A DNA stretch of 45,709 bases, taken from Candidatus Wallbacteria bacterium (lineage in GTDB: Bacteria > Muiribacteriota > UBA6191 > JACPRK01). Numbering within the stretch: the first letter of the stretch is position 1; each line of letters opens with the position of its first letter. The position numbers and the translations under genes are program-made. Positions 39,459 through 43,470 of this stretch are shown here, piece after piece. The DNA is taken from the NCBI GenBank assembly GCA_016213845.1, contig JACQZN010000062.1:1-45709 (forward strand), in the 5' to 3' direction. The notes under the pieces are model-generated. The model made no database searches. It was not told where the DNA came from and saw only the letters and a list, made by a program, of their open reading frames with translations.

Positions 39459-39920
39459 GTGCGCTGCTACGATGGAGGTGTGCGGCGCGATAGACGAACG
39501 TGCGGTGTGACCCTCACGGAGGTGCTCCTGGCCGTGGCGATCCTGGCCCTGCTGGTGGCGCCGGTGATCGACTTGGTGCTGCTCAGCGGCAGGGCGAACG
39601 CCGCGTCAATCAACGAGATCGTGTTTACGAACCTGGCCAACGAGCTGGCCGACGGATTGGTTCACGCCGACGCGGCCTTCCTGCAGCAAGCGGTGTCGCT
39701 CTCATCGGGCAACTGGGTCAACCTGCTGGCGCTCGAGGCTACGAAGCAGCGGCTTTACCTCCAGAGCGAGATTCCCGAGCAGGCCCACGAGGTGGCCTTC
39801 TCGCTTTCGCAGCCGCCGGGACAGGCCGGCTGGGCGCTGCGCGTGCGGGTGCACTTCATCGAGCGTGGGGAGCAGCGGGAGGTGAGGCTGGCGCGATACC
39901 TGCGCCAGCCGGTCCCATGA
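39459..39920 (+). CDS. Prepilin-type N-terminal domain protein (type IV pilin / T2SS pseudopilin-like)
   Basis: Leader (M)RCYDGGVRRDRRTCG | VTLTEVLLAVAILALLVAPV gives G at -1 and E at +5, followed by a hydrophobic helix. The remainder is about 120 aa. GTG start. Confidence 0.6.
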   Translation: MRCYDGGVRRDRRTCGVTLTEVLLAVAILALLVAPVIDLVLLSGRANAASINEIVFTNLANELADGLVHADAAFLQQAVSLSSGNWVNLLALEATKQRLYLQSEIPEQAHEVAFSLSQPPGQAGWALRVRVHFIERGEQREVRLARYLRQPVP

Positions 39921-40726
39921 CGCGCCTGGGGCGGGCGGGTTACTCTGTGCTCGAGGTGCTCATCGGCGCCGCCATCCTGGCGGTGCTCTTCGGCGCGGCC
40001 ATCTTCGTTTGGACCCAGAGCGGCCGCATGAGCACACGAGAGAACGCCTCCGTCCACGCAATGCGCGATCTCAACCTCGTGTTCGTCCGGATGCGGGACG
40101 ACCTGGGCGCGATGGTGCTGGATCGCGAAGTGGCCGCCGGCGCGGGCGCCCCGATCGAGATCTCCTTGTTTCGCACCACGGTCGCGTCGTTGACCACCGA
40201 AGTCCGGTTCTTCAAGATTCACGACTCGATTCCTGAAACGAATCAACCGGTGGCCGGCCAGCTCGTCTACCGGCTCGAGGGGCCCGCCGGCGAGCAGACG
40301 CTGGTGCGAACCATTCACGACGTGACGGCCGGTGGGATCTCGCAGGCCGCCCTGGAGCGCCGGGAGTACTGCCGCGGCGGGCTGCGCGGCTTCCGGCTCG
40401 CCTGCTACAGCCGGGACAAGTCCACCGGCGCGCTCGAGGAGCTTACCGACCCGGTCCTGAGGTACGACGCCGCGCGCCTTCCGGATTGCCTCTTCCTGGA
40501 GCTCGCCCACAAGGACGCCTCCCGCATCACGGGGTACGTGACGGTCGCTTCCCGCCACGTCCAGACGCGCGCCGAGCGCGCCCGGCTCTACTGGCTCGAC
40601 AACTGGATGGTGCCGGCCGATTCGGGCACTGCGGGCGCGCCGGTCGGTCAAGTGACGTACCACCCGGCAAACTCGCTCAACATCGGAGGCACGGGAGTCG
40701 TGCTCTCCGCCGCGACCCTCCGATGA
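39917..40726 (+). CDS. Second prepilin-type N-terminal domain protein (pseudopilin-like)
   Basis: MTRLGRAG | YSVLEVLIGAAILAVLFGAAIFVW gives G at -1 and E at +5. ATG 39917 overlaps the upstream stop (ATGA). Confidence 0.6.
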   Translation: MTRLGRAGYSVLEVLIGAAILAVLFGAAIFVWTQSGRMSTRENASVHAMRDLNLVFVRMRDDLGAMVLDREVAAGAGAPIEISLFRTTVASLTTEVRFFKIHDSIPETNQPVAGQLVYRLEGPAGEQTLVRTIHDVTAGGISQAALERREYCRGGLRGFRLACYSRDKSTGALEELTDPVLRYDAARLPDCLFLELAHKDASRITGYVTVASRHVQTRAERARLYWLDNWMVPADSGTAGAPVGQVTYHPANSLNIGGTGVVLSAATLR

Positions 40727-40735
40727 CGCGCGCGG

Positions 40736-40749
40736 CGTGAGGCCTCACG
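40736..40749 (+). terminator. 14-bp perfect palindrome CGTGAGGCCTCACG followed by TTTCG, 10 nt after the pseudopilin-2 stop
   Basis: Seen directly. It has a short stem and a weak T-run, so it is at most a weak terminator or attenuator between the pseudopilin pair and the MVP gene, which lies 204 nt downstream. Confidence 0.25.
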
Positions 40750-40930: not shown

Positions 40931-43396
40931 ATGGCAGAAGGCAGAGAGCGCGACCTGGTCCTGGCGCCCAACGAGTACGCCTACATCCTGGACGAGACGA
41001 AGGGAAACGTCGTCGCTTACGTCGGTCCCCACAAGACCAGCATGGCCAACACCGACCGGCCCGTCGTCTACGATCCGCAGACCAGGCGCTATCGGCGCTC
41101 GAGCCTCGAGGAGGCCATCACCTCGTTTCCGTTCGCCGAGGAGGGCTGGTACATCGTGCTGGAGGACCCGGCCCGCCCCGGCGATGAAGAGCACCCGAAG
41201 GCTGGCCCCAACAGCCTCCCGCGACTCACGCCCGGCCGAAAGGTGAACCTGCCGGGCCCCACCACCTTCCCGCTCTGGCCCGGGCAGGTCGCCCGCGTCG
41301 TCGAGGGCCACCAGCTCCGCTCCAACCAGTACCTGCTGGTGAAGGTGTACAACGAGGAGGCCGCGCGAGAGAACTGGAACCGCGCCGTCATCAAGCCGCA
41401 ACGCGCCGTGTCAGTGGAGTCGACGGCTCCGGCGACTCCGTCGGCCGAACCCGATCTCCCGGAGCTCCCGGCGCTCACGACCGGCCAGCTCCTGATCGTG
41501 CGCGGCACGGAGGTCAGCTTCTACATTCCGCCGACCGGCATCGAGGTCGTCGCGGACCCGAGCGGCTCCCACGTGCGCTCCGCCGTCACCTTGGAGCGGC
41601 TGGAGTACTGCATCCTGCTCGACGAGAACGGCAGCAAGCGCTTCATCCAGGGCCCCGCCGTGGTCTTCCCCGAGCCGACCGAGACCTTCGTCGAGCGCGC
41701 CGCGCAGCGGAAGTTCCGCGCCATCGAGCTCAACGAGATCAGCGGCCTCTACATCAAGGTCATCGCGCCCTACACCGACGAACGCGGCGTCGAACGCGCT
41801 GCCGGCGACGAGCTCTTCATCACCGGGCGGGACCAGATGATCTACTACCCGCGGCCGGAGCACGCCATCATCAAGTACGGCGAGCAGGAGGTCCACTACG
41901 CGGTCGCCATTCCGGCTGGCGAGGGCCGCTACGTCCTCGACCGCATCTCGGGCGAGATCCGGCTGCACCGCGGGCCCGCGATGCTGCTGCCGGACCCCCG
42001 CCGCGAAGTGATCGTCCGGCGCATCCTGGACGCCGAGACCTGTGCGCTCCTCTTCCCGGACAACCCCGCCGTGCTCGAGCACAACCGCGCGCTCGCTGCC
42101 CTCGGAGGCGACCAGGAATGCGAGGCCGCCCCGGCTGCCGAACGCGTCCCCAAGCGGACCGGTGTGAACCTCCTCGGCAAGCGGGCAGAGCCCAGGGACG
42201 GCGCGGCGGCCTTCGCGGGCGACGGTTTCGTGCGCCGCCCGGGCTTCACGGCCCCGCGCACCCTCACGCTCGACACCCGTCTGGACGGCGCCGTGGCGAT
42301 CGAGGTCTGGACCGGCTACGCGGTGCTGGTCGTCGGCCGCTCCGGCCAGCGGCAGGTCATCGTCGGCCCCAGGACTCACCTGCTCGAGTACGACGAGACC
42401 CTGGAGCCCGTCCAGCTCTCCACCGGCACTCCGAAGTCGGCGGAACGATTGACCCGCACGGCCTACCTGCGCGCCCTCAACAACCGGGTCGGCGACCTGG
42501 TCGAGGCCGAGACCAGTGACCTCTGCCGCGTCCGGCTCAGGCTCTCCTACTGCGTCGGCTTCGAGGGAGACCCGGTCCAGTGGTTCCAGGTCGAGAACTA
42601 CGTCCAGTTCCTCTGCGACCACATGCGCTCGCTGTTGCGCAACGTCGTCAAGCGCCACGGCATCGAGGCCTTCCACGCGCGCGCCATCGAAGTCGTCCGG
42701 GACACGGTCCTGGGCCCCCCGACTGAAGCGGGCCGGCGCGCCGGCCGGCTGTTCGAGGAGAACGGCATGCGCGTTTTCGACGTCGAGGTACTCGACGTGG
42801 AGGTCGGCGACGAGACCATCGGGAAGTTCCTGGTGAGCGCCCAGCACACCGCCGTCCAGCAGGCCATCCGAATCGCGCAGGAGGAACGCCAGCTCGAGGT
42901 CGCCCGCCGCTCCGAGGAGATCAAACGACTCATCGCCTCGACCCAGTCCGAAACCATCCGGTTGACCCTTGGCCTCAAGGTCGAGGAGGTCAGGAAGCAG
43001 CTCGAGATGAACCTGGCCGAGATCGAGTCGCAGGCCCGGGCCGAAGAGTCGCGCCTGTCGGCGACCGCGGCCCAGCAGGACGCCCTCTCGCGCATCACCG
43101 ATAGCGAGCTCTCCCGCGAGAAGTCCCGCCAGGCCGTCGAGCTCGAGTTCCAGCGCGCCCAGCTCGAGCAGCGCCTCCAGCAACTTCGCGCCGAGGTCCA
43201 GTCCGTCGTCGAACGTGCCCAGGCCGTGTCGCCCGACCTGGTCGCCGCCCTCCAGGCCTTCAGCGACCGCCACCTGGCCGCCAAGGTCGCCGAGACCATG
43301 GCCCCCCTGGCCATCCTCGGCGGCAAGAGCGTCGCCGAAGTCTTCGGCACCCTCCTGAAGGACACCCCCCTCGAGACAGCCCTGGTCCCCCGCTAG
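40931..43396 (+). CDS. Major vault protein (MVP) homologue, full length: N-terminal MVP repeats, shoulder domain and C-terminal cap-helix coiled coil
   Basis: From M40 of the track ORF (GAGGTG 8 nt upstream) the N-terminus aligns with human MVP: MAEGRERDLVLAPNEYAYILDETKGNVVAYVGPHKT versus [35 protein letters not shown]. Repeat units follow (...QLLIVRGTEVSFYIPPTGIEVV..., ...RYVLDRISGEIRLHRGPAMLLPDPRREVI...). Shoulder-like segment ...IEVWTGYAVLVVGRSGQRQVIVGPRTHLLEYDETLEP... versus ...[36 protein letters not shown].... FEAFHARAIEVVRDTVLG versus FDDFHKNSARIIRTAVFG. Then a 150-aa Glu/Arg/Gln-rich helix (QEERQLEVARRSEEIKRL...). No signal peptide, so cytoplasmic. Confidence 0.85.
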   Translation: MAEGRERDLVLAPNEYAYILDETKGNVVAYVGPHKTSMANTDRPVVYDPQTRRYRRSSLEEAITSFPFAEEGWYIVLEDPARPGDEEHPKAGPNSLPRLTPGRKVNLPGPTTFPLWPGQVARVVEGHQLRSNQYLLVKVYNEEAARENWNRAVIKPQRAVSVESTAPATPSAEPDLPELPALTTGQLLIVRGTEVSFYIPPTGIEVVADPSGSHVRSAVTLERLEYCILLDENGSKRFIQGPAVVFPEPTETFVERAAQRKFRAIELNEISGLYIKVIAPYTDERGVERAAGDELFITGRDQMIYYPRPEHAIIKYGEQEVHYAVAIPAGEGRYVLDRISGEIRLHRGPAMLLPDPRREVIVRRILDAETCALLFPDNPAVLEHNRALAALGGDQECEAAPAAERVPKRTGVNLLGKRAEPRDGAAAFAGDGFVRRPGFTAPRTLTLDTRLDGAVAIEVWTGYAVLVVGRSGQRQVIVGPRTHLLEYDETLEPVQLSTGTPKSAERLTRTAYLRALNNRVGDLVEAETSDLCRVRLRLSYCVGFEGDPVQWFQVENYVQFLCDHMRSLLRNVVKRHGIEAFHARAIEVVRDTVLGPPTEAGRRAGRLFEENGMRVFDVEVLDVEVGDETIGKFLVSAQHTAVQQAIRIAQEERQLEVARRSEEIKRLIASTQSETIRLTLGLKVEEVRKQLEMNLAEIESQARAEESRLSATAAQQDALSRITDSELSREKSRQAVELEFQRAQLEQRLQQLRAEVQSVVERAQAVSPDLVAALQAFSDRHLAAKVAETMAPLAILGGKSVAEVFGTLLKDTPLETALVPR

Positions 43397-43400
43397 CCCA

Positions 43401-43470
43401 GAAAAAAGGAAAACCGGGGACACACGACCTATTTTTTAAAAATAGGTCGTGTGTCCCCAGTTTTTTTTCC
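43401..43470. terminator. Bidirectional intrinsic terminator: 21-bp perfect palindrome GGGGACACACGACCTATTTTT-T-AAAAATAGGTCGTGTGTCCCC (43416..43458) flanked by an A-tract upstream and a T8 tract downstream
   Basis: Seen directly between the convergent MVP (stop 43394..43396) and HExxH gene (stop 43477..43479). It gives a U-tract on both transcripts. It is the only strongly AT-rich stretch in the window. Confidence 0.7.

Follow-up and report, generated by a model that had tools for sequence, protein, structure and literature searches.

The window analysed here is the whole of contig JACQZN010000062.1 (45,709 nucleotides, nt; about 69% GC), which bears the label 'Candidatus Wallbacteria', and its subject is a pair of small genes, pilin 1 and pilin 2, that lie directly upstream of a gene for a major vault protein (MVP) homologue. 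Both encode genuine prepilin-type minor (pseudo)pilins, and they are part of a rare, conserved 'pilus-tip' cassette of three to four genes, whose core consists of the pair and a gene for a protein of about 900 amino acids (aa), here called BIG. A contig from a groundwater metagenome-assembled genome (MAG) with the same label, JACPRK010000021.1 (L001), is 99% identical to the window, and a position in it equals the window position minus 30930. The loci that hold the cassette beyond the window and L001 are numbered L020-L032, and the features of the window treated below are as follows.

34490..37201, minus strand: BIG, 903 aa, candidate GspK/PilX-like giant minor pilin (the NCBI call, P0005, is likewise 903 aa)
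37198..39393, minus strand: C45-like secreted protein, 731 aa from ATG 39393 (the open reading frame reaches ATG 39447)
39394..39479, no strand: short divergent region separating the C45-like/BIG operon from the pilin operon; its limits follow start-codon choice
39480..39920, plus strand: pilin 1, minor pilin of predicted GspI/PilV fold, 146 aa from GTG 39480 (153 aa from GTG 39459)
39917..40726, plus strand: pilin 2, minor pilin of predicted GspJ/PilW fold, 269 aa from ATG 39917
40727..40930, plus strand: spacer between pilin 2 and MVP, 204 nt, holding a 14-nt palindrome
40931..43396, plus strand: MVP homologue, 821 aa from ATG 40931; a neighbour of the cassette and not a member

The pilin pair and its cassette partners

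The open reading frame (ORF) of pilin 1 opens at GTG 39459, with GTG 39480 as the likelier start, and ends at TGA 39918-39920. From the likelier start the leader reads MRRDRRTCG/VTLTEV (the slash separates the leader from what follows), with prepilin cleavage predicted between Gly (39504-39506) and Val (39507-39509) and with Glu+5 at 39519-39521. Pilin 2 opens with the leader MTRLGRAG/YSVLEV, ends at TGA 40724-40726 and is joined to pilin 1 by a stop-start overlap (ATGA, 39917-39920), so that the translational coupling proposed in the initial annotation stands. The class III layout was found in both proteins, as MRRDRRTCG/VTLTEVLLAVAILALLVAPV in pilin 1 and MTRLGRAG/YSVLEVLIGAAILAVLFGAA in pilin 2, with about 20 hydrophobic residues after Glu+5. 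The earlier description of these leaders as textbook class III signals was right as to Gly-1 and Glu+5, which both carry, and slightly generous in its adjective, as the +1 residue is V in pilin 1 and Y in pilin 2, not F or M, and as pilin 2 falls below the family cut-offs. The Pfam N_methyl profile (PF07963, cut-off 21.2 bits) scored 23.9 for pilin 1 and 16.7 for pilin 2, and TIGR02532 (cut-off 16.3) scored 18.1 and 13.8, respectively.

Both pilins are conserved at 20-55% identity across several lineages, and their genes have coding-like third-position GC. Among homologues down to 20-29% identity, Glu+5 is invariant and Gly-1 is kept, with Ala in one sequence. A combined regular-expression and hydrophobicity scan of the six frames of the window returned exactly two prepilin motifs, those of pilins 1 and 2, and in 542 kb of fetched loci a local hidden Markov model (HMM) of prepilin N-termini matched only cassette genes at E<1e-4. 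The identity of the pair as prepilin-type minor (pseudo)pilins is thereby confirmed. The NCBI call for pilin 1 (P0004, 137 aa, HY816_13740) starts at the GTG of Val+1; because this start removes the leader and Gly-1, the gene is annotated merely as hypothetical. Alignments of the homologues favour the upstream start over that call (window 39459-39509), and the signal peptide of pilin 1 has been hidden by the public gene call, which is a point for its annotation.

AlphaFold2 models were built from small family alignments (pilin 1, pLDDT 82.6; pilin 2, pLDDT 70.2 and pTM 0.66), and both predict a long N-terminal alpha-helix packed on a beta-sheet, the 'lollipop' fold of pilins. The modelled globular part of pilin 1 is of the GspI type, its best structural matches being XcpV/GspI (7.6), GspI (7.4), EpsI (7.2), the pilin domain of GspK (7.1) and two Thermus minor pilins, and that of pilin 2 is of the two-sheet GspJ type, with XcpW, EpsJ and GspJ, all subunits of type II secretion systems (T2SS), as its best matches. 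The order of an I-type and then a J-type gene with overlapping ends matches E. coli gspI-gspJ, and each of the 8 cassette loci has the stop-start overlap; further gsp or pil genes adjoin the pair in none of the cassette loci. By predicted fold and gene order, pilin 1 can be assigned to the I type and pilin 2 to the J type, both outside the named sequence families.

BIG starts at TTG 37201, which overlaps the stop codon of the C45-like gene (cTTGA). Its N-terminus, MSLPRPGGR/AAFAIALVIGVFLVACVVGLGLL, consists of a basic leader, a Gly and a hydrophobic segment of about 23 residues, lacking Glu5. The BIG N-termini of three lineages (GGR/AAFAIALVIG, PRG/IAIFVIM and KHKG/FMSFIIL) share one layout of basic leader, Gly and about 20 hydrophobic residues, in which the +5 residue is A, V or I and never Glu. 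A pilin-like N-terminus without Glu5 is the signature of GspK and PilX among the minor pilins of T2SS and type IV pili (T4P). At the extreme C-terminus of BIG, the last 35 or so residues are among the best conserved of the protein, and homologues of BIG (58% and 27-31% identity) have the pilin pair next to them in every case. Comparison by hhalign gave a weak match between the N-terminus of BIG and the pilin 1 profile (E 0.0014, probability 17.5%) and no signal between BIG and the pilin 2 profile. Pfam searches at E<=10 with BIG, with its N-terminal 100 aa and with the C45-like protein returned nothing usable, PilX_N included (DUF7299 only, at E 0.13), and Pfam detected no PilY1/PilC beta-propeller domain in BIG or the C45-like protein. 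From its motif and its gene context, BIG is put forward as a candidate K-type subunit.

The C45-like protein begins with a Sec-type signal peptide, MRSAPMLLAISLVLTLSATLWA/G, and matches NCBIfam NF040521 (C45 autoproteolytic acyltransferase/hydrolase) over residues 80-284 with 60.3 bits, below the cut-off of 85. Its homologues (53% and 28-31% identity) adjoin BIG in L020, L023, L024 and L028, and the gene is absent from the marine locus L030; it is an accessory member of the cassette, translationally coupled to BIG. The promoters of both operons are presumed to lie in the divergent region 39394..39479, where no sigma-70 consensus was found, a result that is uninformative for this lineage.

Several further observations concern the C45-like family. 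An invariant Q-C-E motif (Cys153) could supply an Ntn-type nucleophile. The tail of the protein is of low complexity and rich in Pro and Ala, and it is acidic in distant homologues; a long acidic insertion in the homologues is missing from the window protein. In L020 (MAG GCA_964610245.1) the C45-like gene at 7324-9420 is matched in two separate tblastn pieces, and in the deposited calls its N-terminal half is covered by an opposite-strand ORF of 220 aa, a disruption that is likely to be a frameshift or mis-call in that assembly.

Conservation of the cassette and its relation to the MVP gene

The sequence families of the cassette are very rare and unannotated: relatives of pilin 2 numbered three in a word-indexed search of 5.8 billion proteins and six cluster representatives among 1.84 billion proteins searched in full by HMMER. 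The constant partner of the pair is BIG, present in every locus long enough to tell, and the C45-like gene is added in two lineages. The initial annotation had called the pair orphaned, which is not supported, and had not connected it with the BIG and C45-like genes, both of which lie immediately upstream of it on the opposite strand in the window. The divergent order, with C45-like and BIG transcribed away from pilin 1 and pilin 2, is present in the window, L001, L020 and the split contigs L021 and L023. L024, L025, L028 and L029 have a co-directional, overlapping series of C45-like, BIG, pilin 1 and pilin 2, and the marine L030 has BIG, pilin 1 and pilin 2 as overlapping genes in the same direction without a C45-like gene. 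BIG also precedes the pilins, co-directional and overlapping, in L031 and L032, on contigs too short to show what precedes BIG, and in L027 BIG is convergent with the pair. The closest cassette homologues share 50-58% identity, and the GC content of the cassette loci is 37%, 57% or 64-69%. Pairwise identities fall to 20-31%, and the linkage is therefore conserved and functional rather than a trace of recent synteny.

The gene that follows the pair changes from lineage to lineage: an FHA-GAF-SpoIIE phosphatase in L020, L021 and L022 (about 55% identity), a convergent radical-SAM gene in L024, L025, L028 and L029, a subtilase in L030 and the convergent BIG in L027. The MVP gene follows it in the window and L001, and none of L020-L032 holds an MVP gene.

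The MVP homologue has shoulder and vault repeat domains, with Pfam matches to PF11978 MVP_shoulder (90.9 bits, cut-off 25; 7.8e-26) and PF17795 Vault_3 (30.3 bits, cut-off 28.8; 4.6e-07), and a score of 20.8 for PF01505, below the cut-off of 27. The interval first described for the locus ran to 43470, which is 74 nt beyond the MVP stop at 43396. An exact look-up of the window MVP returned no record. Scanning one genome per bacterial species gave 19 MVP loci at 48-99% identity, including the L001 copy; the other 18, at 48-64% identity, were examined with flanks of 10 kb on either side in most cases. When pilins 1 and 2 and all other neighbours were compared with the 19 loci by tblastn, they matched L001 only. 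The initial annotation had presented a pilin pair beside a vault protein as an arrangement that had not been described and had looked to other bacterial MVP neighbourhoods for its refutation: a prepilin-like ORF was found in none of the 18 by motif scan and N-terminus HMM, apart from a single weak candidate 9 kb downstream in L010. ORF clustering revealed no gene family common to MVP neighbourhoods, with local synteny among the closest relatives (L002-L006) only. Because none of the 18 other MVP loci has the pilins and no other cassette locus has an MVP gene, a conserved pilin-MVP unit is not supported. The adjacency is an accident specific to the source genome, and the MVP gene is an unrelated neighbour. 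MVP gene neighbourhoods are not discussed in the accessible literature on bacterial MVP.

The spacer between pilin 2 and MVP contains the weak palindrome CGTGAGGCCTCACG (40736-40749), which, like the spacer length of 204 nt, is as it had been read before; it folds no better than shuffled sequences (z = 0.57). A consensus scan of the spacer found no terminator-like site on the plus strand and no sigma-70-like site, and Rfam, applied to the whole window and to the spacer, found no RNA family, so that elements resembling vault RNA or a riboswitch are lacking upstream of MVP. With no convincing terminator in the spacer, read-through from pilin 2 into MVP is possible, as had been proposed, and to judge from the sequence it could take place in the source genome. 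Even in that case, the comparison of loci speaks against a functional unit that is conserved.

A second K-I-J-like set was found in L001 with the prepilin N-terminus HMM. It spans L001:15732-19557 (equivalent to window 46662-50487, past the window end), 3.3 kb downstream of MVP, and consists of three genes.

L001:15732-18119: protein of 795 aa, pilin-like N-terminus HSRG/SVVLYLVLAL without Glu5
L001:18116-18724: prepilin-like protein, 202 aa, ARSG/VTLFEV, with an ATGA overlap with the 795-aa gene
L001:18688-19557: prepilin-like protein, 289 aa, NRA/FTLVEL, N_methyl 29.3 bits (above the cut-off)

The similarity between this set and the first cassette is weak but co-linear; it was too weak for the set to be accepted as a clear paralogue, and the two are regarded as probably related. 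Between them, L001 encodes MVP, two small HExxH proteins and a MORN-repeat protein. Such flanking by two cassettes makes a local regulatory link slightly more likely; the comparative verdict is unchanged by it, because all 18 other MVP loci lack any such cassette.

Other genes of the window and of the MVP loci were also recorded. Directly 3' of MVP, on the minus strand, lie two overlapping paralogues (43477-44178 and 44175-44735; about 26% identity). Their products are small, have N-termini like those of signal peptides and HExxH motifs (HEFSH, HELSH), match nothing in Pfam or NCBIfam and are possibly small secreted metalloproteases. The sole recurrent MVP neighbour is a divergent gene of about 604 aa, located 0.2-0.8 kb upstream of MVP in L002-L006 and 3.9 kb away in L015. 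MVP genes 55-64% identical to each other occur in MAGs labelled Bacillota, Synergistia, Burkholderiales, Caldilineaceae, Riflebacteria and Selenomonadaceae, and also Nitrospirota-like 'Magnetomicrobium' and Vulcanimicrobiota; across L002-L019, either many of these labels are unreliable or the MVP clade moves horizontally. Farther upstream in the window, 8553-13773 (plus strand) holds genes for two successive large CHAT-domain proteins, one of which has TPR repeats and the other a CHASE2 sensor domain, followed at 14689-20952 by an exporter operon (TolC-like, HlyD-like, MacB-type ABC). At 30467-32830 (minus strand), a 787-aa ORF contains a Tim44-like domain (93 bits) as well as several weak zinc-ribbon matches, and its identity to the L001 copy is only 85%, compared with 98-99% for the adjoining genes.

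A probable tip complex for a filament machine encoded elsewhere

The reading that best accounts for these observations, and that we consider probable, is that these are divergent I, J and K minor pilins that form the tip or initiation complex of a type IV filament, with the machine encoded elsewhere and MVP incidental. By analogy with the GspK-GspI-GspJ and PilX/K-PilV/I-PilW/J trimers, BIG, pilin 1 and pilin 2 would be inserted into the cytoplasmic membrane via their N-terminal helices, and pilins 1 and 2, at least, would be trimmed by a prepilin peptidase encoded elsewhere. The trio may then form the tip or initiation complex by which a type IV filament, either a pilus or a T2SS pseudopilus, is nucleated, and the bulky BIG, and perhaps the C45-like protein too, would be exposed at the tip. 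Genes elsewhere in the genome would supply the filament machine and the major pilin. The roles would be those of I for pilin 1, J for pilin 2 and a giant K-like cap, possibly a functional head, for BIG, with the C45-like protein as an optional tip-associated or secreted partner. Of this scheme, the motifs, the predicted I and J folds, the conserved linkage of the genes and the lack of a link to MVP are observed; the K role of BIG, the trimer, the processing and a cognate machine are inferred.

This proposal draws on published work on such complexes. According to that work, the PilI-PilJ dimer recognises a K-type subunit, and a C-terminal strand completes the sheet of that subunit; the strand belongs either to the same protein (in cis; GspK, CpaL) or to another one (in trans; PilY1, PilC, MshQ) (PMC13533445), and the I-J-K trimer licenses filament assembly and remains at the tip (PMC13533445; accessible part of PMC7541494). 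The N-terminus of BIG and its conserved C-terminus fit the model of a K-type subunit with a cis strand (PMC13533445). In the accessible parts of two reports, Myxococcus xanthus has several minor-pilin/PilY1 sets remote from the machine genes (PMC7541494, PMC8833165); such remote clusters are commonplace, and the apparently orphaned state of the cassette is therefore not unusual. The sole cultured species of Eremiobacterota, the phylum of the nearest MVP relatives, makes type IV pili (PMC9758169), which makes a machine encoded elsewhere plausible.

Several findings weigh against the proposal. The absence of T2SS or T4P machinery that had been noted near the pair extends to the whole 45.7-kb window: Pfam found no secretin, GspE/PilB or GspF/PilC domain in its large coding-like ORFs, and no prepilin peptidase, assembly ATPase, platform protein, secretin or major pilin was found in the window or within 10 kb of the cassette loci. 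BIG has no Pfam, NCBIfam or PDB sequence match, and hhalign gave it a probability of 0.6% against E. coli GspK; profile searches of PDB sequences returned noise only for pilin 1, pilin 2, BIG and the C45-like protein alike. The AlphaFold alignments were shallow (7 and 11 sequences), and a Foldseek search of the PDB with the pilin 1 model gave nothing significant, for which reason its fold assignment is softer than that of pilin 2. The curated GspI and GspJ cut-offs were missed by the pilin sequences: pilin 1 scored 16.0 for GspI (TIGR01707, cut-off 44.35) and 21.1 for PilV (TIGR02523, cut-off 52.2), and pilin 2 scored 16.8 for GspJ (TIGR01711, cut-off 64.85). Alignments by hhalign cover the N-terminal 68 columns only for pilin 1 with E. 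coli GspI (probability 57%) and the N-terminal 67 columns only for pilin 2 with E. coli GspJ (probability 79%). The taxonomy of the window is also uncertain, its label being 'Candidatus Wallbacteria' and those of its MVP relatives Vulcanimicrobiota or Xenobia.

Among other explanations, the cassette could be the GspI-J-K pseudopilus tip of a T2SS encoded elsewhere, with the C45-like hydrolase as its cargo or a tip-bound substrate. The best structural matches of the pilins are T2SS subunits (XcpV, GspI and EpsI; XcpW, EpsJ and GspJ), and the C45-like gene, translationally coupled to that of BIG, encodes a Sec signal peptide; even so, we regard this version as unlikely. Comparably improbable is a complex independent of any machine, in which BIG and the pilin-like proteins would stay unpolymerised at the membrane or surface and the N-termini would serve as anchors only. 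The fetched flanks of every cassette locus are free of filament-machine genes, and BIG has no detectable similarity to known tip proteins, as this explanation would have it. However, Gly-1 and Glu+5 are conserved over very distant lineages, and these residues matter for peptidase processing and filament assembly and not for anchoring; the two pilins correspond to real tip complexes in their I and J folds, gene order and coupling; and minor-pilin clusters far from their machine are well known, as in the accessible parts of the M. xanthus reports (PMC7541494, PMC8833165). An accidental occurrence of the Gly-1/Glu+5 motif in ordinary membrane proteins or in non-coding GC-rich ORFs would suit the sub-threshold Pfam and TIGRFAM scores of pilin 2 and the leaderless NCBI call of pilin 1, which begins at Val+1. 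It is ruled out by conservation and fold: the leader, the Gly and the Glu are retained at 20-55% identity, third-position GC is coding-like, pilin folds are predicted, and the motif occurs nowhere else in the window.

The suggestion that the pair and MVP form one unit, co-transcribed over the 204-nt spacer and perhaps anchoring or exporting a vault-like particle, must be judged very improbable. The genes share a strand, the gap has no convincing terminator, MVP sits between two K-I-J-like cassettes in the source genome, and a preprint places bacterial MVP in gliding bacteria (10.1101/872010). Against this stand the 18 other MVP loci, none of which has a pilin-like ORF or cassette homologue within flanks of up to 10 kb, and the lack of any gene family general to MVP neighbourhoods. 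The closest cassettes are followed by the FHA-GAF-SpoIIE gene or by BIG, and the distant ones also lack MVP, so that the comparative context largely refutes this link.

Relation to known tip complexes

Compared with the GspK-GspI-GspJ complex of T2SS (enterotoxigenic E. coli 3CI0; P. aeruginosa XcpX-XcpV-XcpW), the cassette likewise has two small class III proteins with predicted I and J folds, encoded by overlapping genes in the order I then J, and BIG resembles GspK in its pilin-like N-terminus without Glu5. In contrast, BIG measures about 900 aa and GspK about 330 aa, no sequence similarity between them is detectable, BIG is encoded upstream, divergent or convergent, and not downstream, and gspC-H and gspL-O are not adjacent. 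The type IVa priming complex (PilV/W/X or PilI/J/K with PilY1/PilC), whose genes often lie far from those of the machine, as in M. xanthus and P. aeruginosa, provides a second parallel, as the cassette also joins minor pilins to one or two very large proteins, lies away from the machine genes and includes a Sec-secreted protein, the C45-like one, as PilY1 is. Thermus minor pilins are among the best structural matches of the cassette pilins, and the proposed role in initiation and tip display follows PMC13533445 and the accessible part of PMC7541494. Unlike this complex, the cassette has no FimU/GspH-type or PilE-type fourth or fifth pilin, and no PilY1/PilC-type beta-propeller is detectable in its large proteins.

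Giant K-like tip subunits of 600-1200 aa, encoded beside I/J minor pilins, have been described as CpaL/TadG of Tad pili and MshQ of MSHA pili, and in CpaL the N-terminal pilin-like domain is completed by its own extreme C-terminus (PMC13533445). BIG is similar to CpaL in its size, its pilin-style N-terminus, its strongly conserved extreme C-terminus and its position beside I/J pilins; it differs from CpaL and MshQ in having no established sequence similarity to them and no Tad or MSHA machinery genes near. The window MVP resembles the bacterial MVP homologues already reported (10.1101/872010; PMC3762200) in its domains; its 18 further relatives have no conserved neighbourhood, and it takes no part in the cassette.

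More tentatively, BIG and pilins 1 and 2 may represent an unrecognised class of tip or initiation complex, with an undescribed K family of about 900 aa that has a pilin-style N-terminus and a conserved C-terminal strand. Such a class would be spread over very distant bacteria (37-69% GC), always away from a filament machine, and would be teamed in a Xenobia-like lineage with a secreted C45-type hydrolase. A weaker addition to this proposal is that the vault protein is co-expressed with the two flanking cassettes in the source lineage.

A link between pilins and a vault protein would have been striking, and its failure removes a false lead on bacterial vault proteins. What remains at this locus is a cassette with I and J subunits that are recognisable by predicted fold only and, as its third member, a giant protein without known relatives. 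Should BIG turn out to be a K-type cap, it would provide a new example of the recently proposed general rule by which an I-J dimer recognises a K subunit completed by a C-terminal strand (PMC13533445), and it would offer a handle on the surface structures of poorly known, mostly uncultured lineages.

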